A DNA stretch of 64,000 bases from Peptococcaceae bacterium (GCA_900759105.1 CAAETY010000147.1:7431-71430), one strand, 5' to 3'; shown: positions 1,136-28,272, counted from the first letter of the stretch. The notes: generated by a model not told the origin, from the letters alone. A program made the numbers and translations.

Positions 1136-2359
1136 ATGGCTGAGAAGAAAAAAATTGGCTTGGTAACACGTCTCATCATCGGGATTGTTATCGGTCTCCT
1201 GCTTGGGATGGTTGTACCTGAGTTTGTCATCCGTGCGTTGGCAACTGCCGGGGCCATCTTTGGCAGCTATTTAAGTTACATTATTCCATTGATGATCGTG
1301 AGCTTTGTTGCAACCGGGATTGGGCACTTAACCAGCGGTGGTGCCGGCAAGCTTTTGCTTGCAACCGTGGCAATTGCATATTGCTCCACCATTATTGCCG
1401 GGACCTTTGCATATACTGTTGACAGTGCAATTTTCCCTAGCTTCATTACACCTGAAATCATCGCTAATTTCAAAGAAACCAGTGGTGTAGCGGTTGAACC
1501 GTACTTGGAATTCGTTCTTACTCCGGTTTTTGACGTAACCACCGCAATTGTGCTTGCATTTATTTTCGGGATTGGCATTATTACCCTTCGTAACACCAAA
1601 GAACACAACGAAGTGGCTGAATTAATGCTCAAACTCTTTGACGGCTTCCAAGCCATCATCAACCTCGCACTTTCTAAGACCATCTTGCCATTGCTTCCTT
1701 TCTACATCGGTATCACCTTCGCTAAGATGAGCTATACCGGTGAAGTATGGAGCGTACTCAAGGTATTCTGGAAGGTCTTTGTCATCATCTTGATTCTCCA
1801 CCTCATTTACTTGACCGTTGCATTCTGCATCGCCGGTGGTATATCCAAGAAGAGCCCACTCTTCCTCATGAAGAACCAAATCCCTGGCTACATGACTGCA
1901 GTTGGGACTCAAAGCTCTGCAATCACCATTCCTGTAAACGTGAAGTGTGCGGAAGCAAACGGCGTATCCAAGAGTATTCGTGAATTCGTTGTACCGCTTT
2001 GCGCAACCATCCACTTGGCAGGTAGTACCATTACCATCACCAGCTGTGCGACCGGGGTATTGATGATGAGCAACATGCCACACAACTTGAGCTTGATGCT
2101 TCCATTCATTTTCACCCTCGGCGTTGTTATGATTGCTGCACCGGGTGCACCGGGCGGCGCAATCATGAGTGCACTTTCCTTCTTGCCAATGATCGGCATT
2201 CCTGTAGAAGGTGCATTGGCATCCTTGATGATTGCCCTTTACCTTACCCAAGACTCCTTCGGGACTGCTTGTAACGTATCCGGTGACAACGCTATCGCTG
2301 TCATTATCGATACCTTAAAGGACAAAATTACCGGGACGAAGAGCGGCAAAGCTGCATAA
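1136..2359 (+). CDS. dicarboxylate/amino acid:cation symporter (DAACS family)
   Basis: 407 aa polytopic membrane protein; C-terminal N-V-S-G-D motif and re-entrant-loop G-rich segments typical of the GltP/SstT family. Confidence 0.7.
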   Translation: MAEKKKIGLVTRLIIGIVIGLLLGMVVPEFVIRALATAGAIFGSYLSYIIPLMIVSFVATGIGHLTSGGAGKLLLATVAIAYCSTIIAGTFAYTVDSAIFPSFITPEIIANFKETSGVAVEPYLEFVLTPVFDVTTAIVLAFIFGIGIITLRNTKEHNEVAELMLKLFDGFQAIINLALSKTILPLLPFYIGITFAKMSYTGEVWSVLKVFWKVFVIILILHLIYLTVAFCIAGGISKKSPLFLMKNQIPGYMTAVGTQSSAITIPVNVKCAEANGVSKSIREFVVPLCATIHLAGSTITITSCATGVLMMSNMPHNLSLMLPFIFTLGVVMIAAPGAPGGAIMSALSFLPMIGIPVEGALASLMIALYLTQDSFGTACNVSGDNAIAVIIDTLKDKITGTKSGKAA

Positions 2360-2369
2360 TTTGTTATCA

Positions 2370-2405
2370 AAAAGCGACTGTTTGCGAAAACAGTCGCTTT
2401 TTTTG
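2370..2405 (+). terminator. rho-independent terminator
   Basis: GCGACTGTTTGCGAAAACAGTCGC hairpin followed by a T7 run. Confidence 0.8.
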
Positions 2406-2642
2406 TTGGGTTTTGGCATAAAGTGGGCAAATACCCCTTGAATTATCGGTAAGAAACATTTATAATAAGTAAAAACAAAGATTATGAAAGAGAAAACGTA
2501 GGCCAGGGGGCCTACGGGAACATTGCAAATCGTTTGTTTTCTCAATCAATCCTTCTTCGTTTTATTTTCTGCTTATCACAGGAACGGCCCCAGAACATTC
2601 CCTTCAGACTGTTTTGGGGTCGTTTCACGTCATGGCAACAAT

Positions 2643-2686
2643 AAAAAAGCAGCGTTTTTTGCTTGTGCAAGAACGCTGCTTTTTTG
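2643..2686. terminator. bidirectional rho-independent terminator
   Basis: AGCAGCGTT...AACGCTGCT hairpin flanked by A6 and T5 runs; sits downstream of the minus-strand Crp/Fnr gene. Confidence 0.7.
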
Positions 2687-2690
2687 ATGG

Positions 2691-3359
2691 TTATTTTTTG
2701 TAGTCAATTTTTCGAATGCCTTGGGCATACTCTTGAAGCATGTCTTCATCGATGATTTCGATGCAATTGCCATTGTAGGCAATGCAGCCGGCGCTTCTGA
2801 GTGCAAGGATGATTTTGTTGGCGGTAATGCGGTGCATGCCCAAAAAACGGGCGATGTCAGCAACGCTGCAAAAACGTGAAAAGCGAAGCTTGCCGTCGAC
2901 TCTTTCCGAACGCTCAATGATAAAACTTGCCACGCGCGGTGCGGCTTGTCCTTTTTGTTTGGCCACGAAATTACTTACAAGGGTGGAATATTCGCCAAGC
3001 AGACGGTATAAGAGCTCCTTCATCACTGTCGGGTGACGATCGAGAAATTCGTCAAATTCTTCGGCAGTAAGGCGGTGCGCGCGAATTGGTGAAAGCGCAA
3101 TCATTTCACTGCTGCTAATGGTTGCTTGCGGGCTGCTGTATTGGATATAGGGGCCGACTAAGGAATAAACAGATTCTCCGGGTGTATATTCTTCAAAAAA
3201 GATATTTTCACCGGTGGTGGTGGTCATTTGACGCATACAGTTACCTTCTACAAGGTAGTAAACGTAGCTGGCCTCGTCATCGTAGCTGAGTAAGTGCTCT
3301 CCTTTGGCAAATTCGACGAGCGGATACGACATGAGTTCTTTTAAAGCGACTTCGTCCAT
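2691..3359 (-). CDS. Crp/Fnr family transcriptional regulator
   Basis: 222 aa; N-terminal cNMP-binding-like beta-roll and C-terminal HTH (RITANKIILALRSAG). Confidence 0.8.
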   Translation of the reverse strand: MDEVALKELMSYPLVEFAKGEHLLSYDDEASYVYYLVEGNCMRQMTTTTGENIFFEEYTPGESVYSLVGPYIQYSSPQATISSSEMIALSPIRAHRLTAEEFDEFLDRHPTVMKELLYRLLGEYSTLVSNFVAKQKGQAAPRVASFIIERSERVDGKLRFSRFCSVADIARFLGMHRITANKIILALRSAGCIAYNGNCIEIIDEDMLQEYAQGIRKIDYKK

Positions 3360-3650
3360 AAAAACTTCAAAACCTCCTGACGCATGATTTTTATTTCCTA
3401 TTATATAAGGATACCAGATTTTTGCGTTTGTATCAAACCAGACTGTTCCTAATTGGCCAAAAACTGCGTGATTTTTTCTTATTTGCGTGGTTTGTATGTG
3501 CTTGCAAGTGATTCATGCAATGAAGGTGGGAGGGTAACAGTATAATTGGGGATAAAGCATGGAGGGGTTTATCCCCTGTGGACATGGCGGCGATTCACGA
3601 AAATGCATAAAAATCTATTATTGCGGGTTAGTGTTAAATTAAAGGGCAAA

Positions 3651-3674
3651 AAATTAACGAGGGTTAATTATTTT
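3651..3674. promoter_or_regulatory. 24-bp conserved operator AAATTAACGAGGGTTAATTATTTT containing the palindrome TTAAC-N4-GTTAA (copy A)
   Basis: Perfect 5-4-5 inverted repeat. An identical 24-mer recurs upstream of the paralogous gene at 5389-5412. It lies about 80 bp upstream of a TAGAAT -10 box. Confidence 0.55.
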
Positions 3675-3852
3675 GCCGTAATCTTTGCGTTGTGACCGGG
3701 AAGTGTAGCATGGGCTACTGACAAATCCCTCTGCAAAGTGATAGAATGCTGATTGTCTAGCTGTGAGATAGAAATGATAAATAACCATTATGTACAGCTG
3801 GGACACTCTTTTTTTGATAAAAAGCAGAAGATGAAAGGATGAAAGTAAAAAA

Positions 3853-5331
3853 ATGAGTGCACAGAAGCAAAAACGTAATCTGTACCCTCTCCACGTAGTC
3901 GTTGGTTTTGCGATTATCGCGGCTTTCTGGATGATGCCACCAATCGAACCAATTACTGCCTTGGGGATGCGTTGTGCAGGCGCTTTCTTGGGTATGGTTT
4001 ACCTTTGGAGTGCGGTAGACACCCTTTGGCCAAGTATGGTTGGCCTTTTCATGTTGGCAATTTCCGGTTATGGTGGCGAAGCCGGCTTTAACGGCGTATG
4101 GATGCAAGCAGTCGGTGTATACACCGTTCTCTTGACCTTGTTCGCAATGGTACTTTTCGGTGCGATGGACGAAGTTGGCGATACCAAGTATATTGCGAAA
4201 TGGTTCCTCACCCGTTCTATCTTTAAGGGTCGTCCATTGGTATTTATGGCAGTGTTCTATGCAGCAGCCTTTGTTATGAGTGCTGTTTGCCAACCAATGA
4301 CCGCGCTCATCATTCTCTGGCCTGTTGCCAGAAGCTTGATGGACACCATGAATGTTACACGTGAAGACAAAATCTGGAAATTCTTCTTTGTTGGGATGTT
4401 TGCAGTTTCCACTTTGGCGCAACCACTCTTCCCATTCATGGGTGCTCAGCTCATTCCTTACTCTGCTTTCCAAAGTATGACTGCTGCCATGGGCAACCCA
4501 ATGACCATCCCAATGGCACAATATATGGTTGTTAATATGGTAATGACCACCCTCATCATGGCAGTTTTCCTTTTGGGTCTCAAGCTTTTGCGCGTGGATA
4601 TGTCCAAGCTCAAGGCCATTGACCCTGAAATGATCAAGAAGGAAATGGAACTTCCTCCAATGACCTTGCCACAAAAGCTTTATCTCCTTATGGTACCTGC
4701 ATTCTTGGTAATGATGCTCGTACCAAGCTTCTTCCCTGATTTTGCTATTTGCAAAGCCCTCAATATGATTGGGCCAATGGGGATTACCCTTCTTTGGGTT
4801 ATGCTCTTCTTGATTGTTCGTATTGATGGCAAGCCACTCTTGGACTTCAAGGAAGTAGCATATCATCAATTCAGCTGGGGCATCTTCTTTATGATTGCTG
4901 CTGCAGTATTTGGTGCAAACACCTTGTCCAATCCTGAAACCGGGATTCCTGATTTCTTGATTCAAGCATTGACCCCAATCCTCGGTGGTCGCAGTGAAAT
5001 GGTATTTGTTGCTATTCTCTTCACTACCGCATTGATTGTTACCAACTTTGCGAACAACGCTGCAATGGCAGTGGTGCTCATGCCGGTTGTACTCAACTTC
5101 TCCGATCAAATGGGTATCAACCCAATGCCTGTTGCAACCGGGGTTATTCTCATGGTATTCGTGGCAATGTTAACCCCTGCTGCATCTCCACACGCCGGGA
5201 TGATGCACGGGATGAAACCAATCTATTCCACCAAGGAAATCTTGAGCGTTGGTTTCCCTATTTGTATGATTGCGCTCTTGCTCTATATCTTTGTAGGGTA
5301 TCCACTTTGCAAGATTCTCATGGGCGTGTAA
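3853..5331 (+). CDS. ion-transporter-superfamily permease, paralog A (anion/organic-acid permease-like; family not assigned)
   Basis: 492 aa, about 12-14 TM helices, internal two-fold repeat with hairpin-like G/A-rich segments (TNFANNAAMAVVLMPV); about 80% identical to the ORF at 5584. Confidence 0.55.
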   Translation: MSAQKQKRNLYPLHVVVGFAIIAAFWMMPPIEPITALGMRCAGAFLGMVYLWSAVDTLWPSMVGLFMLAISGYGGEAGFNGVWMQAVGVYTVLLTLFAMVLFGAMDEVGDTKYIAKWFLTRSIFKGRPLVFMAVFYAAAFVMSAVCQPMTALIILWPVARSLMDTMNVTREDKIWKFFFVGMFAVSTLAQPLFPFMGAQLIPYSAFQSMTAAMGNPMTIPMAQYMVVNMVMTTLIMAVFLLGLKLLRVDMSKLKAIDPEMIKKEMELPPMTLPQKLYLLMVPAFLVMMLVPSFFPDFAICKALNMIGPMGITLLWVMLFLIVRIDGKPLLDFKEVAYHQFSWGIFFMIAAAVFGANTLSNPETGIPDFLIQALTPILGGRSEMVFVAILFTTALIVTNFANNAAMAVVLMPVVLNFSDQMGINPMPVATGVILMVFVAMLTPAASPHAGMMHGMKPIYSTKEILSVGFPICMIALLLYIFVGYPLCKILMGV

Positions 5332-5344
5332 GCAAACTGTAAAA

Positions 5345-5386
5345 TCTCGAACACTCGCTTCAATATCGAAGCGAGTGTTTTTTTGC
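5345..5386 (+). terminator. rho-independent terminator
   Basis: AACACTCGCTTC-aatat-GAAGCGAGTGTT hairpin followed by a T7 run. Confidence 0.8.
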
Positions 5387-5388
5387 AT

Positions 5389-5412
5389 AAATTAACGAGG
5401 GTTAATTATTTT
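5389..5412. promoter_or_regulatory. 24-bp conserved operator with TTAAC-N4-GTTAA palindrome (copy B)
   Basis: Identical to 3651-3674. Confidence 0.55.
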
Positions 5413-5583
5413 TGGACGAATTATGTCATCATTTAAAATGTGAAGTCTAGACTACTAATAAAAACCATTTATAAGTGCTATTATATGGCATACAGGGGGT
5501 GAGATTGAAACGATAAATAAAAATTATTCTCCCGTAGCAATTTTTCTTTATGTTTATCCTAAAAAGAGAGAGGATGAAAAAAG

Positions 5584-7065
5584 ATGAGTGAACAAAAACA
5601 AAAACGTAATCTTTATCCGGTTCATTTGGTAGTTGGCTTTGGCATCATGGCATTATTCTGGCTCATGCCACCAATTGAACCTATTACAGCACTCGGGATG
5701 CGCTGTGTTGGTGCGTTCCTTGGGATGGTCTATCTCTGGAGTGCTGTTGACACACTCTGGCCTAGTATGGTCGGGCTCTTCATGTTGGCAATTTCCGGTT
5801 ATGGCGGTGATGGTGGCTTTAACGGCGTGTGGATGCAAGCTGTTGGGGTATACACCGTTCTCTTGACCTTGTTTGCAATGGTACTCTTTGGTGCGATGGA
5901 TGAAGTTGGCGACACCAAGTACATTGCTAAATGGTTCTTGACCCGTTCTATCTTCAAGGGTCGTCCAATGGTGTTTATGGCAGTATTCTATGCATGCTGC
6001 TTCGTTTTGGCGGCAATCTGCTCTCCAATCACTTCTTTGATTATTCTTTGGCCTATCGCATTGAGCTTGATGGATTCTGTTAACATCACTCGCGAAGACC
6101 GTTTGTGGAAGTATTTCTTCGTAGGGATGTTTGCGGTATCTACATTGGCACAGCCATTGTTCCCATTCTTGGGTGCACAGCTCATTCCTTATGCAGCATT
6201 CCAAAGTATGACCGCAGCAATGGGCAACCCAATGACCATTCCTATGGGCCAATACATGGCTGTTGACCTTATCATGACTACTTTGGTAATGGCACTCTAC
6301 CTCGTTGTTTTAAGATACGTATTGCGTGTTGACATGTCCAAGTTAAAAGCTGTTGACCCTGCAATGGTAGAAGAACAAATGCCACTGCCTAAGATGAATT
6401 TCCAACAAAAGGCATTCCTCTACATGATTCCTTGCTATTTGATAATGATTCTTTTGCCTAACTTCTTCCCTAACAATCCTGTATCCGCCGGTCTTAACTT
6501 TATCGGGCCTATGGGGATTACCATTGTTTGGGTAATGATTTTCCTTATCGTTCGTTGGAACGGCAAACCTCTCTTGGACTTCAAGGAAGTTGCATATCGT
6601 CAATTTAACTGGGGTATCTTCTTCATGATCGCAGCAGCTGTATTTGGCGCAAATACCTTGTCCAATCCAGACACCGGTGTTCCTGCCTTCTTGATTAAAG
6701 CCTTGACCCCAATCCTCGGTGGCCGCAGTGAAATGGCATTCGTTGCCATCATGTTCACCACCGCATTGATTATCACTAACTTCGCAAACAACGCTGCAAT
6801 GGCCGTTGTACTCATGCCGGTTGTACTGAACTTCTCCAATGAAATGGGTATCAACCCAATGCCTGTTGCAACCGGGGTTATCCTCATGGTATTCGTTGCG
6901 ATGTTGACCCCTGCTGCATCCCCACACGCTGGCTTGATGCATGGGATGAAAAAGATTTACAACACCAAGGATATTCTTTCGGTTGGGTTCCCAATCTGTA
7001 TTGCGACCTTGCTATTGTACATTTTCATCGGTTACCCACTTTGCAAGGTGCTCATGGGTGTATAA
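5584..7065 (+). CDS. ion-transporter-superfamily permease, paralog B
   Basis: 493 aa tandem paralog of 3853..5331; it has its own promoter region and a leader containing the shared element GTGAGATTGAAACGATAAATAA. Confidence 0.55.
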   Translation: MSEQKQKRNLYPVHLVVGFGIMALFWLMPPIEPITALGMRCVGAFLGMVYLWSAVDTLWPSMVGLFMLAISGYGGDGGFNGVWMQAVGVYTVLLTLFAMVLFGAMDEVGDTKYIAKWFLTRSIFKGRPMVFMAVFYACCFVLAAICSPITSLIILWPIALSLMDSVNITREDRLWKYFFVGMFAVSTLAQPLFPFLGAQLIPYAAFQSMTAAMGNPMTIPMGQYMAVDLIMTTLVMALYLVVLRYVLRVDMSKLKAVDPAMVEEQMPLPKMNFQQKAFLYMIPCYLIMILLPNFFPNNPVSAGLNFIGPMGITIVWVMIFLIVRWNGKPLLDFKEVAYRQFNWGIFFMIAAAVFGANTLSNPDTGVPAFLIKALTPILGGRSEMAFVAIMFTTALIITNFANNAAMAVVLMPVVLNFSNEMGINPMPVATGVILMVFVAMLTPAASPHAGLMHGMKKIYNTKDILSVGFPICIATLLLYIFIGYPLCKVLMGV

Positions 7066-7087
7066 AACAGTCATCAATTAACTTTAA

Positions 7088-7119
7088 GTGCGCTGACTTG
7101 CTCAGCGCGCTTTTTTTTG
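7088..7119 (+). terminator. rho-independent terminator
   Basis: GCGCTGACTTGCTCAGCGCGC hairpin followed by a T8 run. Confidence 0.8.
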
Positions 7120-7142
7120 TGTCGTGAATAAGTGCTTGAAGC

Positions 7143-7182
7143 GCACAATAAAAGCGCACATCCTATCAATTGGGATGTGCGC
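7143..7182 (-). terminator. rho-independent terminator for azlD
   Basis: GCGCACATCC...GGATGTGCGC hairpin, T-rich on the minus strand. Confidence 0.6.
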
Positions 7183-7219
7183 TTTGGTATTGATGTAGAT
7201 GGTTGTGTTAATCGGGATA

Positions 7220-7519
7220 TTACAGGATGAGCTCAATTCCCAACACAACGGTGCAGCAAAAAACAGCCACTTGAAATAAGCTTTTGCCTTGCCATGCGGC
7301 GATGATACCCACTAAAAGCGCACAAGCACCGGCAATGGGTGTATCGGTAGCGTGCAAAATTGCCGGGAATGTCATGACGGCGAGGGTCACGTAAGGCACG
7401 TAGTATAAAAAGGAGTTTAAGGTTACATTGGTAATGGGCTTGCGAATGAGTGTCAAAGGCAGTACACGAATGAGATAGCTTACAATGGCAATCACTGCGA
7501 TATAAATGTAGATATTCAT
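7220..7519 (-). CDS. azlD: branched-chain amino acid transport protein AzlD
   Basis: 99 aa small hydrophobic protein immediately downstream of azlC. Confidence 0.7.
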   Translation of the reverse strand: MNIYIYIAVIAIVSYLIRVLPLTLIRKPITNVTLNSFLYYVPYVTLAVMTFPAILHATDTPIAGACALLVGIIAAWQGKSLFQVAVFCCTVVLGIELIL

Positions 7520-7521
7520 GC

Positions 7522-8286
7522 TTAGACCTCCTCGGGATCGTTATGAACCGGGAACAGGATGGCAGCGATGCCGGAAATAACCACGGTTAGAATGATGATG
7601 ACGGTGCCGCTTGAAAGGTCACGCAGCCATGGGAGCAGGGTGGACGCATAGCTTGCAATAAAGCTAATCAGCACAATGGCACCGATTAAATGGTTGTTGC
7701 GACAAGGTGGGATGATAATGGCAAGAAACATTCCAAAGAGCGCCACGCCCAACGCTTCAACAATCACTGCCGGCAGCACATCTCCGGCAATAATACCGCA
7801 GGCGGTGCCAATTGCCCAGCCCGGAGAGGCGATGGCAAAGGCGCCGTAATTATAGAATGGGTTGATATAGCCGGGGCGCGCGATGCTGATGCCAAAGATT
7901 TCATCGGTAATGCCAAAGGCAACGAGAAAACGATGGTAGAAGGGCGTATTTTCGGAAAAACGTTGGCTCAAGGCGGCACTCATCAGCATGTAGCGGGCAT
8001 TGGCAATAAGGCTCATAAGCGCCATTTGCGTGTAGGTGCCCAATGCAGCGATGACAGTGAGGGCAGCATATTGACCGGCAGAGGCATTGACAAGGGCACT
8101 CAACAGAAAGCCTTGCAGTGCGTCAAGACCAACGGCACCGGCTTGGATACCCAAGGAAAAGGCGACGGCGAAATAACCGAGGGCGATGGGGATGCCGTCA
8201 AGAAACCCTTCGCGGAAGGCGGTGAGATTATCTTGATATGAATAGATACCGTGTTTTTCTTTTGGCAGGGATTGAAGCGCTGACAT
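7522..8286 (-). CDS. azlC: AzlC family branched-chain amino acid permease
   Basis: 254 aa polytopic protein with AzlC-type sequence pattern; a 2-nt gap separates it from azlD. Confidence 0.75.
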   Translation of the reverse strand: MSALQSLPKEKHGIYSYQDNLTAFREGFLDGIPIALGYFAVAFSLGIQAGAVGLDALQGFLLSALVNASAGQYAALTVIAALGTYTQMALMSLIANARYMLMSAALSQRFSENTPFYHRFLVAFGITDEIFGISIARPGYINPFYNYGAFAIASPGWAIGTACGIIAGDVLPAVIVEALGVALFGMFLAIIIPPCRNNHLIGAIVLISFIASYASTLLPWLRDLSSGTVIIILTVVISGIAAILFPVHNDPEEV

Positions 8287-8394
8287 GAAAATGCCTCCTC
8301 TTTCTGTATAATAATGAAGCTTATGGCACCCATTATACGATTAGCGTTGACATTAGTAAAACGCATAATTATTATGAACGTATAAGGAAATGAG

Positions 8395-9279
8395 ATGAAG
8401 GGAAGTGTGCCCATGCTATCGAAATATGACATTTTTTGTAAAGTGGTTGAATACGGTGGCTTTACCAAGGCTGCCAACGCCATTAGCTATTCTCAGAGTG
8501 CGGTGAGCCAAACAGTGAAAAATTTGGAGCAAGAGCTTGATTTGACCTTGTTGAATCGTGGGAAGGACGGTATTCACCTAACCGGTGACGGCGAAGCAAT
8601 TTTTCCCTATATTCAAGGCATTGCCAACGCTGAAAAGGCACTGGTGCGCCGTCAAAAAGAATTGCACGGTTTGACAAACAGTGTCATTCGCATTGGCACA
8701 TTTACGAGTGTGAGCCGCAATTTGCTTCCGGGCTGGATGGTTGATTTTAAGGCGCTGTATCCGGATATTCGCTTTGTCTTGGAGCAAGGGGAGTACACGA
8801 CCATCAGCGAATGGGTGCAAAATGATGTGGTCGACTTTGGCTTTGTGAATATGCATGCCGCTCCTGATATGGAAGGGCAGCTGCTTTACACCGATGAAAT
8901 GTGTGCGGTGCTGCCGTTGGATCATCCTTTTGCAAAAAAAGAGGTGGTTAGCTTGCAGGCGCTTGCCGAGGAACCCTTGATTTTATTGGACGAAGGGGAA
9001 TTTAACAGTCCCTTGCGTGCCTTTGAGCAAGCGGGGCTTGAGCCGCAAATCGCCTATGAAGTGTATGACGATTACACCATCATCGCCATGGTTGAAAAGA
9101 AGCTCGGCATTTCTATGATGTATCGCAAGGTGCTCTGTGGCTACGAAGACCATGTGGCGTTGTGCCCGGTGGATGCAGACCTGAGCCGCCCGGTGGGCAT
9201 GATTTGGAATAACTGGGACACCCTTCCGATTGCCGCACGCCGTTTTATCGAATTTATTGCCAAGCAACCGATTGCGTAA
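8395..9279 (+). CDS. LysR family transcriptional regulator
   Basis: N-terminal HTH (FTKAANAISYSQSAVSQTVKNLE) plus a LysR substrate-binding domain; divergent from azlCD. The start may be at 8413. Confidence 0.85.
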   Translation: MKGSVPMLSKYDIFCKVVEYGGFTKAANAISYSQSAVSQTVKNLEQELDLTLLNRGKDGIHLTGDGEAIFPYIQGIANAEKALVRRQKELHGLTNSVIRIGTFTSVSRNLLPGWMVDFKALYPDIRFVLEQGEYTTISEWVQNDVVDFGFVNMHAAPDMEGQLLYTDEMCAVLPLDHPFAKKEVVSLQALAEEPLILLDEGEFNSPLRAFEQAGLEPQIAYEVYDDYTIIAMVEKKLGISMMYRKVLCGYEDHVALCPVDADLSRPVGMIWNNWDTLPIAARRFIEFIAKQPIA

Positions 9280-9375: not shown

Positions 9376-9538
9376 ATGTAAATGGTGAAAGAAAAAAGGA
9401 AACGTTAAATTCTCCTAAAACTGTAGCCCAGACTATCGGCGTATTGAAAAAGTTCTTGCTATACTTAGTATAAAGTTCGTTGATAACGACGATGAAAGCT
9501 AAAACTATTGTAAACAATAAGAATCGGAGGATATTCGA

Positions 9539-11425
9539 ATGGCTGAAATCAAATATACACACAAAGACCATATCATTACCTTACAAAAGCAAAGCGAAGA
9601 AGCATTCCTCGCAGAATTTGCTGCCGGTGACTACACTCTCACCAACCCACTCGTAAAACTCAACCCTTACATCATTTGCCCACTCAGCGCAATGATTCTC
9701 TTCAAGACCCCACGTGCAGAAGAAGTAACCATTATCGTTCACGGTAAAGAAGCTGCAGGCGACATCTGCCACACCTTCCCTGCTGCTTACGAACACATTC
9801 TTCCTATCTACGGTCTTTATGCAGACTACGACAACCAAGTTGAAATCGTACTCCAAGACGGCAGCCGTCACACCGTAACCATCAAGACTGAACCAAAGAT
9901 GGAAGGCGTACCTGAATCCACTTCTTGCGACACCACCCCGGAATACATGGGTGACAACATGGTATTCCTCACCGCTTCCATGCGTTCCTTCCCTGTAGGT
10001 TATGACTACAAAGGTGATCTTCGTTGGTACTGCGTAGAAAACCTCGCATTTGACATCAAGCGTATCGCTAACGGTCACATCCTCGTTGGGACCGAACGTC
10101 TTGTGAAGATGCCTTACTTCACCACCGGTTTGTATGAAATGAACTTCGGCGGTAAAATCTTCAAAGAATATGTTATTCCATGCGGTGGTTATCACCACGA
10201 CCAATTCGAAATGGAAGACGGCAACATCTTGGCGCTCACCTTCGATTTCTACTCCGGCACTGTTGAAGACGTTTGCGTACTCTTAGACAGAAACACCGGC
10301 GAAATCTTGAAGAAATGGGATTACAAAAACGTGCTCCCACAACAAGGCCCTGGCTCCGGCAGCCAAACCGAAGAAGACTGGTTCCACAACAACGCTGTTT
10401 GGTACGACAAAAAAACCAACTCCTTGACCTTCTCCGGTCGTCACGAAGACGCTGTTATGAACATTGACTTCGAAACCGGCGAACTCAATTGGATTATCGG
10501 TGACCCGGAAAACTGGCCACAAGAATATGTGGACAAGTATTTCTTCACCCCTGTTGGCGATGGTGACTTTGACTGGCAATACGAACAACACGCTTGCGTG
10601 GTTCTTCCTGACGGCGATGTGATGATGTTCGACAACGGTCACTATCGTTCTAAGAACCCAGATAAATACTGGGCAAACCATGACAACTTCTCCCGTGGCG
10701 TACGTTATCGCATCAACACCGATGACATGACCATCGAACAAGTATGGCAATATGGGAAAGAACGCGGTGCGGACTTCTTCTCCCCATACATCTGCAATGT
10801 TGAATACTACGATGAAGGCCATTACATGGTTCACTCCGGTGGTATCGGCTACTTGGACGGCAAATGCTGCGACGGCTTTGCTGTTATGATGGCAATGCAA
10901 CCGGAATACAAGGATCGCGTGACCTTCAACTCCATCACCTGCGAATTGGTTAACGATGAAGTGGTATATGAACTCCATGTTCCTGCAAACCTTTATCGTG
11001 CAGAAAAATTGCCACTCTACTATGCCGGTGAAACCTTCGAACAAGGTGCAGGCGAATACGTAGGTGGCCTCATCGAAACCAAGACCACCCGCATGAAGAT
11101 GAAAGCTGAAGAAACCGGCGAAATCGTTCCGGATCATTATCAAGCAAACATCGTAGAAGAAGAAGACCGCTTCCTCTTCAACGCTATCTTCGAATCCGGT
11201 GAAATGGCACAGCTCTTGCTCATTGATGGCGAAGGCAACATCCGTCGTTACCCAATCGAGACCGTGACCCAAGAATTCACCGCAATGTGCGTAGGGACCT
11301 TCCAAAAGGCAGACCCACGTAACATCGATACCTTCATCAACAAGACCGGCCTTGTTGGTCCACAAACTGTGAAGCTCTTGTGCGAAGACAAGATTTACGA
11401 TACCGGTATTGTTGTTAACAAGTAA
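9539..11425 (+). CDS. aryl-sulfate sulfotransferase (ASST family, PAPS-independent)
   Basis: 628 aa; length and beta-propeller-like sequence features fit the AssT family. Confidence 0.7.
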   Translation: MAEIKYTHKDHIITLQKQSEEAFLAEFAAGDYTLTNPLVKLNPYIICPLSAMILFKTPRAEEVTIIVHGKEAAGDICHTFPAAYEHILPIYGLYADYDNQVEIVLQDGSRHTVTIKTEPKMEGVPESTSCDTTPEYMGDNMVFLTASMRSFPVGYDYKGDLRWYCVENLAFDIKRIANGHILVGTERLVKMPYFTTGLYEMNFGGKIFKEYVIPCGGYHHDQFEMEDGNILALTFDFYSGTVEDVCVLLDRNTGEILKKWDYKNVLPQQGPGSGSQTEEDWFHNNAVWYDKKTNSLTFSGRHEDAVMNIDFETGELNWIIGDPENWPQEYVDKYFFTPVGDGDFDWQYEQHACVVLPDGDVMMFDNGHYRSKNPDKYWANHDNFSRGVRYRINTDDMTIEQVWQYGKERGADFFSPYICNVEYYDEGHYMVHSGGIGYLDGKCCDGFAVMMAMQPEYKDRVTFNSITCELVNDEVVYELHVPANLYRAEKLPLYYAGETFEQGAGEYVGGLIETKTTRMKMKAEETGEIVPDHYQANIVEEEDRFLFNAIFESGEMAQLLLIDGEGNIRRYPIETVTQEFTAMCVGTFQKADPRNIDTFINKTGLVGPQTVKLLCEDKIYDTGIVVNK

Positions 11426-27327: not shown

Positions 27328-27456
27328 GCGTGCGACCTCCTTTTGTTGGTACTTTTATTGTAGGAGGCGAATTGCGACATTGCAATAAGGCATGAAAGAA
27401 TCTGTGGCCAATACATTGCCTTTGGTGGATGTGGCCTGTAAAATAGATGAAAAGGA

Positions 27457-28272
27457 GTGATTGAGATGAAAAAGATAATGGCAACGATGCTTGCCGTTTT
27501 GATGTTTATTGGTTCCTTTGCTATTGCACAACCGAGTCAAGCACAGACTATGGAGGTGTTGATTGACGGGCTGACATTGGAAACCGACCAGCCGCCGATT
27601 GTTTACCAAAGTCGCACCATGGTGCCATTGCGTGCGATTTTTGAAGCCTTGGGCGCAAAAGTGACCTGGACAGCAGGCAGTGGCTCCATTTATTGCCGCC
27701 GAGATGGCGCGTCCATCAGCCTCAAGGTGAATGACAGCACCGCCTATATCAATGGGGAGCGTGTGACCTTGGATGTACCGCCGCTTGCTGTCAACGGACG
27801 TACCTTGGTGCCGGTGCGTGTGGTAAGTGAGGCCCTGGGCGCTACCTGTGAATGGGTGCGCGAATCGAATCGCGTATATATTACCTCCAACGACGGGTAT
27901 GTGGGCGTGATGCGTGTGGATTATGATGCGCTTCTGCCAAGCGAATTAAAGAAGGTATCACAGAGTGCATTGGGCGTTATTCATAATGTAAGAGCGATTT
28001 ACGAAAACACGTCACCGTATCCGATTGTGGACTACAAGCTGATTGGCTCAAACAAGGAAACCGGTAATCGTCACTATTTCACCTGCTATGATACCATCAT
28101 GCCGGGCGAGGATTCTCCAAGAATGGAGTCCTTGTTGGCCAGAGCTGAATATGTGGATGATATTCAATATCAAAAGCTGAGCGTGCAGTTGAAAACATCC
28201 TATGGAAAATTCCGCGTAGAGTATGATTGCAGATTGCAAGAAATTGAATCTGTGAATAAGGTAACAAATTAA
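27457..28272 (+). CDS. secreted protein with two copper-amine-oxidase-N (stalk) domains
   Basis: Signal peptide; repeats MVPLRAIFEALGAKVTW / LVPVRVVSEALGATCEW. Confidence 0.55.
   Translation: MIEMKKIMATMLAVLMFIGSFAIAQPSQAQTMEVLIDGLTLETDQPPIVYQSRTMVPLRAIFEALGAKVTWTAGSGSIYCRRDGASISLKVNDSTAYINGERVTLDVPPLAVNGRTLVPVRVVSEALGATCEWVRESNRVYITSNDGYVGVMRVDYDALLPSELKKVSQSALGVIHNVRAIYENTSPYPIVDYKLIGSNKETGNRHYFTCYDTIMPGEDSPRMESLLARAEYVDDIQYQKLSVQLKTSYGKFRVEYDCRLQEIESVNKVTN

Follow-up and report, generated by a model that had tools for sequence, protein, structure and literature searches.

Several Crp/Fnr-type systems provide points of comparison for the locus described here. CRP proper has a cyclic AMP (cAMP)-contacting Gly-Glu ... 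Arg-Ser/Thr motif, a recognition helix of the form R-E-x-x-x-R, and the target TGTGA-N6-TCACA. FNR proper ligates a [4Fe-4S] centre through three N-terminal Cys and one central Cys; the E. coli protein reads TTGAT-N4-ATCAA. CprK of Desulfitobacterium, another member of the Peptococcaceae, has a phenolic effector and the dehalobox TTAAT-N4-ATTAA as its site. Promoters with two such dimers are also known: at E. coli ansB, FNR sits at -41.5 and CRP at -91.5, and the Busby-lab literature describes class III CRP promoters. The locus itself lies in a 64,000-nucleotide stretch of DNA (GCA_900759105.1, CAAETY010000147.1:7431-71430; the window, whose coordinates are used below) from an uncultured gut Peptococcaceae bacterium. 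It comprises a Crp/Fnr-family regulator, two tandem permeases and an arylsulfate sulfotransferase (ASST), with two kinds of palindrome in their promoters: a proximal GTAGY-N4-RCTAC (GTAG box) and an upstream TTAAC-N4-GTTAA (TTAAC box).

The choice of site by these proteins follows from a few residues. In the crystallised NtcA-DNA complex, bases are contacted only by R186, V187, T190 and R191, and R186 makes a hydrogen bond to the G that never varies in GTA-N8-TAC and lies 7 bp from the dyad (PMC11850224). Rodionov et al. report covariation between residues 180 and 181 and two bases of the half-site, Arg at 180 going together with G at the outer position; NssR of Campylobacter jejuni, which has A180 and Q181, recognises TTAACnnnnGTTAA (PMC1274295).

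Seen against these systems, the regulator in the window probably activates its targets from the GTAG box, and the TTAAC box would be a second, lineage-specific input of Crp/Fnr type; we hold this reading with moderate confidence. The system belongs to a known kind, the Crp/Fnr-dependent promoters; the regulon, the ASST link and a candidate small RNA (sRNA) are new cases of known kinds.

Regulator and the conserved proximal GTAG box

The regulator gene (2691-3359, minus strand, 222 amino acids) diverges from permease 1 (3853-5331, plus strand, 492 amino acids), which is followed by permease 2 (5584-7065, plus strand, 493 amino acids). The initial annotation had described tandem paralogous permeases, about 80% identical and each with its own promoter region, next to a divergent Crp/Fnr regulator, and this description holds: the two proteins are 81% identical, each gene has a separate extended -10, and a strong terminator-like hairpin (5349-5380, plus strand, 13 pairs followed by a T run) ends the permease-1 transcript and separates the genes. 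Both permeases appear to be of SLC13/CitMHS type (IT superfamily). They score above the cutoff for Pfam CitMHS (PF03600, 66 and 61 bits, cutoff 31.9) and far under that for TIGR00785 "dass" (55 and 53 bits, cutoff 198.6); NCBI names their homologs "SLC13 family permease".

The comparison set consists of 67 genome loci with permease relatives, 13 metagenome loci with regulator relatives (the only ones obtained by scanning metagenomes with the regulator profile), and further contigs. The closest genome locus is L001 (UMGS1590), with a permease 96% identical. The layout, in which one or two permeases follow a divergent regulator, is kept in L001-L009, L012, L014 and L068-L086, with regulators 44% to 82% identical to that of the window.

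The regulator is a Crp/Fnr superfamily member (Pfam HTH_Crp_2 and cNMP_binding; PF00027 at 29.0 bits against a cutoff of 27.5, PF13545 at 41.9 bits against 27). Its profile matches the structures of GlxR, CRP, DNR, CooA, NtcA and FNR, all solved Crp/Fnr matches being distant, and only 32 clusters, at 58% identity and above, make up its subfamily. Assignment to a described member fails in each case considered. FNR shares family membership and the 5-N4-5 architecture of the site, but the window regulator has Cys only at 41, 164, 192 and 199, without an N-terminal cluster, scores 20.5 bits against a cutoff of 228 for NCBIfam Fnr, and the half-site sequence differs. CRP proper is rejected on the helix, which reads R-I-T-A-N-K, and on the hhalign alignment, in which no R-S/T motif follows the aligned GE; TGTGA-N6-TCACA sites are likewise absent from the window promoters. 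Scores for FixK and FtrB lie far below the equivalog cutoffs. CprK resembles the case at hand in its bacterial family, in a Crp/Fnr regulator standing beside its targets, in an AT-rich 5-N4-5 palindrome and perhaps in a phenolic effector; it differs at box position 5, no reductive dehalogenase genes occur here, and its profile match is not significant (E 0.08-0.16).

The initial annotation missed the primary conserved box of these promoters, the GTAG box, and saw only an auxiliary, lineage-specific one, treated below. GTAG box 1 (GTAGCATGGGCTAC, 3705-3718) abuts the -35-like CTGACA (3718-3723) of the permease-1 promoter, P(perm1), whose extended -10, TG-a-TAGAAT, occupies 3739-3747 on the plus strand; CTGACA-18-TAGAAT scores 10/12 with the TG present, and the transcription start is predicted near 3754. 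Box 2 (GAAGTCTAGACTAC, 5442-5455) precedes P(perm2), with TG-c-TATTAT at 5476-5484 (TG at 5476-5477, hexamer at 5479-5484), and box 3 (GTAGCCCAGACTAT, 9423-9436) precedes the ASST promoter, P(ASST), with TG-c-TATACT (hexamer at 9460-9465). The distance from box centre to -10 is identical in the three promoters, 30.5 bp, which places the centre at about -42.5; all positions relative to a start site refer to starts predicted from the extended -10 hexamers. Across loci the centre lies 29.5-30.5 bp upstream of the -10 hexamer, that is, near -41.5/-42.5.

Every permease promoter beside a regulator of the window type has GTAGY-N4-RCTAC, the left half often being GAAGY and the centre usually C-Y-R-G. 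Among 28 distinct permease promoters aligned on it, the box is the most information-rich and conserved block. It is found before permease orthologs in L001-L010, L012, L014, L017, L061, the metagenome loci L068-L079, L081, L082 and L084, the promoters in L010, L017 and L061 belonging to related permeases, and before ASST in seven further loci (L001, L003-L006, L012, L014).

The recognition helix points to the same box. It comprises M175-H-R177-I178-T-A-N181-K182 (DIARFLGMHRITANKIILALR) and is identical in the regulators of L002-L008, L012 and L084; that of L014 differs (MHRITVNK). In the profile alignment, R177-I178-T-A-N181-K182 falls on R186-V187-T-V-T190-R191 of NtcA (sequence verified as PDB 2XGX) and on R180-E181-T-V-G-R185 of CRP. 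The regulator's Arg therefore occupies the CRP-R180/NtcA-R186 position, and its 180/181 equivalents are Arg/Ile. An Arg at this position reads G at the outer half-site position, which fits the GTAG box and not the TTAAC box. Regulator orthologs keep the identical helix whether a TTAAC box is present or not, and together with the match between Arg-180 and the half-site this constancy makes the GTAG box the predicted site of the regulator.

The likeness to NtcA concerns DNA specificity. R177/I178 align with R186/V187, and the GTAG box, 29.5-30.5 bp before the -10, is a GTA-N8-TAC site in class II position, like the cyanobacterial site at -41.5. There are differences: the profile match to NtcA is weak (E 2e-4; hhalign probability 96%), the host here is a Firmicute without a PipX/2-oxoglutarate context, conservation extends to positions 4-6 and to the central bases (GTAGYC-YR-GRCTAC), and the regulon concerns transport and sulfotransfer, not nitrogen control. 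The resemblance is one of mechanism only and implies no orthology to NtcA.

P(perm1), P(perm2) and P(ASST) would accordingly form one activator-dependent regulon. A dimer of the adjacent regulator is proposed to bind GTAGY-N4-RCTAC, an NtcA-like box near -42.5 that would replace a weak -35, and to activate in class II fashion. Across the orthologous permease promoters the -35 hexamers are mostly poor and the -10 extended, a combination typical of activator dependence. The trigger may be a small-molecule effector other than cAMP or an O2-labile Fe-S cluster, possibly an aryl or phenolic substrate. A repressor operator in the same place would also explain why the box overlaps the -35 region, and the CTGACA of P(perm1) is a fairly good -35. 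Most orthologous promoters, however, combine a poor -35 with an extended -10, and the distance from centre to -10 is fixed at 29.5-30.5 bp, as in NtcA, FNR and CRP class II promoters (PMC3898017); repression from the GTAG box is very improbable, and activation is preferred.

Some further features of these regions deserve mention. Between regulator and permease, the lineages of the window, L001 and L081 have about 490 bp of intergenic DNA, and most sister lineages about 245-275 bp. Where this region is short, its one GTAG box is also roughly 60 bp (an approximate estimate) away from the regulator's own predicted start; where it is long, box and regulator start stand apart. The extra DNA (window 3360-3650; L001:590-880; L081) contains TATAAT at 3541-3546 and then a hairpin with a 9-bp stem at 3551-3579. 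A second Crp/Fnr paralog, about 27% identical and with the helix VHRVTVTN, which closely resembles RVTVT of NtcA, occurs in L011, L017, L018, L061 and L049. It stands upstream of further permease copies in the same metagenome-assembled genomes; in L017 and L061, GTAG(T/C)CTGGACTAA precedes the permease next to it.

The upstream TTAAC element

The feature that the initial annotation singled out is an identical 24-bp element, AAATTAACGAGGGTTAATTATTTT, built around a perfect palindrome of the 5-N4-5 geometry usual for Crp/Fnr proteins, and its presence is borne out. The first copy lies at 3651-3674 (core TTAAC-GAGG-GTTAA at 3654-3667, 7-bp arms at 3652-3669, centre 3660.5) and the second, again AAATTAACGAGGGTTAATTATTTT, at 5389-5412 (core TTAAC-GAGG-GTTAA at 5392-5405, centre 5398.5). 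In both, the palindrome TTAACGAGGGTTAA extends to arms of 7 bp (AATTAAC/GTTAATT). The exact motif TTAACNNNNGTTAA occurs twice in 64 kb against 0.07 +/- 0.26 expected, a count reached in 0 of 100 dinucleotide-preserving shuffles; with one mismatch allowed in the core, the window holds 3 sites against 2.13 expected, which is not unusual. The centres lie 81.5 bp (permease 1) and 80.5 bp (permease 2) before the first base of the -10 hexamer. This corresponds to about -93.5 and -92.5 from the predicted starts, the class-I-like distance of roughly 90 bp proposed earlier, class I centres being expected near -61.5, -71.5, -82.5 or -92.5. The GTAG box begins 50-51 bp downstream of the TTAAC box: the offset between box starts is 50 bp in eight composite promoters and 51 bp in one, that of permease 1 in the window (n = 9).

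The distribution of the element is narrow, three close lineages and a single promoter of a distant paralog. At the equivalent place it occurs only in L001/L068 (one species) and L081/L082, before both permeases there. In L001, L068, L081 and L082 the arms are invariant while the spacers read GTAG, CTAG, CTGG and GTGG (GAGG in the window); arms kept beside a variable spacer in the closest relatives are what is expected of a protein-binding site. Upstream of the permease orthologs in L002-L008, L012, L014 and L084 no TTAAC box is found. The regulators of these loci are still divergent and 44-76% identical to that of the window, and the one in L084 combines 76% identity with the window's recognition helix. 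L009 is a special case: a lone TTAAC box, TTAACCTGGGTTAA, stands 29.5 bp before the TG-n-TATAAT of a permease paralog, that is, at -41.5, and this class II distance suggests a working class-II-type operator within the clade. Upstream of the same permease, L009:787-2300 holds about 1.5 kb without long open reading frames, in which terminator-like units recur and a decayed piece from the 3' part of a permease gene is found at about 2090-2210.

The initial annotation took the adjacent regulator to be the obvious binder of the TTAAC palindrome and staked this on conservation of the palindrome upstream of orthologs. The outcome goes largely against this: the palindrome is absent in the ten loci just named. 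In addition, the helix Arg fits GTAG, and the TTAAC motif is that of NssR: the core in the window is identical to the published NssR consensus TTAACnnnnGTTAA. The regulator is rejected as an NssR- or FNR-like TTAAC binder because the motif is present but residues 180/181 are Arg/Ile (rule from PMC1274295). The annotation's account of paralogs, promoters, element, geometry and distance thus stands; its choice of the neighbouring regulator as the protein that reads the TTAAC box is probably mistaken.

The TTAAC element is most likely an upstream, lineage-restricted operator. We propose that it is a site separate from the GTAG box, placed 50-51 bp further upstream (-92.5/-93.5) and gained only in the window's lineage. 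Its binder would be a second Crp/Fnr-family protein of NssR/FNR-like specificity, without Arg at the CRP-180 position and encoded outside the window, which might co-activate both permease promoters and leave the ASST promoter aside. NssR itself is alike in half-sites and spacing and in being a Crp/Fnr activator (PMC1274295). It differs in carrying A180/Q181 against R/I in the adjacent regulator; no NssR-like gene occurs in the window, the element lies near -92.5 (-41.5 in L009), and the context gives no sign of nitrosative stress.

A single regulator might instead serve both site types (KTARY-N4-RYTAM), which would turn the permease promoters into class III promoters with tandem sites at -42.5 and -92.5. 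This is essentially the earlier proposal with the missed proximal site added, and we regard it as doubtful. The frame xTAxC-N4-GxTAx is indeed common to both boxes, their central bases (CTAG or CTGG) are similar, and the spacing between them holds at 50-51 bp. L009 has just one regulator nearby, placed between the TTAAC-box promoter and a GTAG-box promoter. Yet half-site positions 1 and 4 are where the two boxes differ, symmetrically, and by our mapping onto the 14-bp frame these would be the specificity bases G3 and A6 of PMC1274295, so that both G-to-T/A changes fall on specificity-determining positions while the G-reading Arg is kept. The roughly 45 GTAG sites and 8 TTAAC sites include no hybrid or intermediate half-sites, and most genomes with an identical-helix regulator, L084 among them, lack the TTAAC box.

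Several points weigh against the two-factor model that we prefer. Its support is entirely comparative, and the sites come from few lineages and are phylogenetically non-independent. Within the window alone, GTAG-like sites number 4 against 2.78 expected, not above chance, so the case rests on fixed position and cross-genome conservation. The main weakness is the lack of a second Crp/Fnr gene, both in the 64-kb window and beside a TTAAC box in the fetched loci: a paralog search of the window and all 90 fetched loci returned just the known regulator and the "RVTVT" paralog beside other permease copies. The proposed second factor is for this reason hypothetical, and the absence of its gene also favours a single regulator. 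Finally, the shared frame with its central C-Y-R-G and the arrangement in L009 make one protein of relaxed specificity possible.

A third explanation leaves the Crp/Fnr family aside: the TTAAC element could be bound by another regulator, whether the LysR-type protein encoded at 8395-9279 or another dimeric helix-turn-helix protein, or be a neutral relic whose two copies gene conversion between the promoters has kept identical. The identity of the two 24-bp copies, spacer included, is seen only in the window and could reflect recent conversion; the LysR gene is syntenic, the element contains T-N11-A, and it is confined to few lineages. Arms that stay invariant while spacers differ in L001, L068, L081 and L009 indicate selection on the half-sites, however, and the LysR gene is equally present in loci without the element. 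The 5-N4-5 geometry, the position at -41.5 (L009) or about -92.5 and the identity to the NssR consensus all fit a Crp/Fnr-type protein, which makes this explanation improbable.

With two Crp/Fnr-type factors, the closest known parallel would be E. coli ansB. That promoter and the class III CRP promoters are alike in having two Crp/Fnr-type dimer sites about 50 bp apart, one in class II and one in class-I-like position; the proteins, box sequences and organism differ, and co-activation in the window is inferred.

Candidate small RNA and permease leaders

Immediately 3' of the regulator gene and convergent with it lies a candidate sRNA gene (2438-2626, plus strand; about 150 nt). Its parts are a promoter, TTGAAT-17-TATAAT (2438-2466), a transcript of about 2473-2626 with a first hairpin at 2497-2516, a 39-nt invariant CU-rich region at 2540-2578 (TCTCAATCAATCCTTCTTCGTTTTATTTTCTGCTTATCA), and a terminator-like hairpin at 2585-2622. 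The candidate is also aligned in L002-L007, L012, L068 and L081; a TTGaAT-17-TATAAT promoter, the first hairpin, the invariant stretch and the terminator-like hairpin are common to nine loci. The stretch is nearly invariant, with 38 consecutive columns identical in 9/9 loci. Covariation is unusually clean: 95.7% of cells are paired and 10 of 21 pairs are compensatory, a result matched by 0 of 500 shuffles and approached by no slid register. The minimum free energy (MFE) has a z-score of -6.56; in the predicted fold, the invariant stretch is left unpaired in its 3' part. No Rfam family matches the candidate. A counterpart is also seen in L009:1790-1960.

Permease-1 leaders contain a motif, GATAAGCAGAA(A), to which the invariant stretch is complementary. 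The complementary segment of the window, GATAAAAAGCAGAAGATGAAAGGATGAA (3815-3842, plus strand), covers the Shine-Dalgarno sequence, and the predicted duplex reaches -24.2 kcal/mol; shuffled leaders give -14.8 +/- 2.3, and none of the 100 does as well. For seven of the nine permease-1 leaders this comparison yields 0.04 or less; pairing with permease-2 and ASST leaders is mostly not significant. Promoter, terminator, covarying structure and an accessible, conserved, target-complementary seed, the attributes of a base-pairing sRNA, are all present as far as sequence can tell, which suggests antisense control of permease 1 by the candidate. In an unrestricted RNAduplex search of the window, the best duplex with the sRNA seed (-32.2 kcal/mol) falls at 27450-27475, where the gene at 27457-28272 has its ribosome-binding site and start; TGATTGAGA there is complementary to the 5' end of the seed.

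Other leader-based mechanisms were considered and rejected. For a riboswitch or T-box in the long leaders, Rfam has no hit at E <= 1 within 2300-7300, and in five related loci, those linked to serS among them, no hit reaches the gathering score (no T-box). A leader peptide is not favoured either, the reading frame in the 5' untranslated region not being conserved between the permease paralogs. The permease leaders themselves, about 100 nt long (window 3757-3804 and about 5496-5536; L002-L012, L069-L079), hold a hairpin whose stem sequence differs between lineages while its AT-rich loop (..ATAATAAAT..ATTAAT..) is kept. Over 21 leaders the mean MFE z-score is -2.55, significant in sister lineages and weak in the window (-1.7 and -0.2). 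RNAalifold on the MAFFT alignment of the leaders gives no consensus structure because the 3' stems are misaligned, and a covariance model built from permease-2 leaders finds only close relatives, the window not among them.

Arylsulfate sulfotransferase link and neighbouring genes

The ASST gene (9539-11425, plus strand, 628 amino acids; Pfam Arylsulfotrans at 2.3e-102 and Arylsulfotran_N) is the predicted third member of the regulon. ASST stands beside permease relatives in several gene orders and taxa (L014, L020, L023, L029, L049, L067); in L049, a Desulfotomaculum species, and L067, a Lachnospiraceae genome, the permease is directly followed by ASST. By inspection, the ASST of the window has no N-terminal signal peptide. 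A cytoplasmic enzyme of this kind would need its anionic aryl-sulfate donors and phenolic acceptors to be imported, and we infer that the permeases may carry ASST substrates or products. More distant permease orthologs (about 65% identity) stand after serS, with no ASST in the vicinity, which limits the aryl-sulfate/phenol inference to the ASST-linked clade; in two lineages (L087:6591-7000, L089:6656-7000) they lie 345-410 bp downstream of serS.

A terminator-like hairpin follows permease 2 at 7086-7112. Between permease 2 and ASST, the window and most syntenic loci carry azlD-azlC (7220-8286, minus strand) and a divergent LysR-type regulator (8395-9279, plus strand); this segment (7220-9279 in the window) has neither a TTAAC nor a GTAG box.

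Taken together, the locus could be a dedicated three-layer control module that imports substrates for a cytoplasmic arylsulfotransferase independent of 3'-phosphoadenosine-5'-phosphosulfate (PAPS), a proposal we offer tentatively and think rather unlikely to hold in full. The first layer would be an undescribed Crp/Fnr subfamily with NtcA-like GTA-N8-TAC specificity that switches on the permeases and ASST from about -42.5. The second would be a further Crp/Fnr-type factor, NssR-like, that from about -92.5 adds a signal of its own at the permeases alone, and the third an undescribed sRNA of about 150 nt, encoded beside the regulator, that pairs with the permease-1 leader and its Shine-Dalgarno sequence.

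The general view of Crp/Fnr promoters is unchanged by these results; they add a new, well-defined instance in an uncultured gut lineage, and the sRNA candidate adds a case of unusually clean covariation. They also indicate that the specificity rules of the family, which relate residues 180/181 to half-site positions 1 and 4, can reassign a seemingly obvious operator to a different protein. The pairing of permease and ASST recurs in Peptococcaceae, Desulfotomaculum and one Lachnospiraceae genome. A 2026 review states that for bacterial PAPS-independent arylsulfotransferases neither the physiological role nor the natural substrates are known (PMC13426309). With a sensor-regulator, a predicted operator, two co-regulated anion-type permeases and the enzyme itself, the locus is a compact and testable handle on this question; if the three-layer module is real, the effector of the regulator and the substrates of the permeases would identify the natural donors and acceptors of bacterial arylsulfotransferases.

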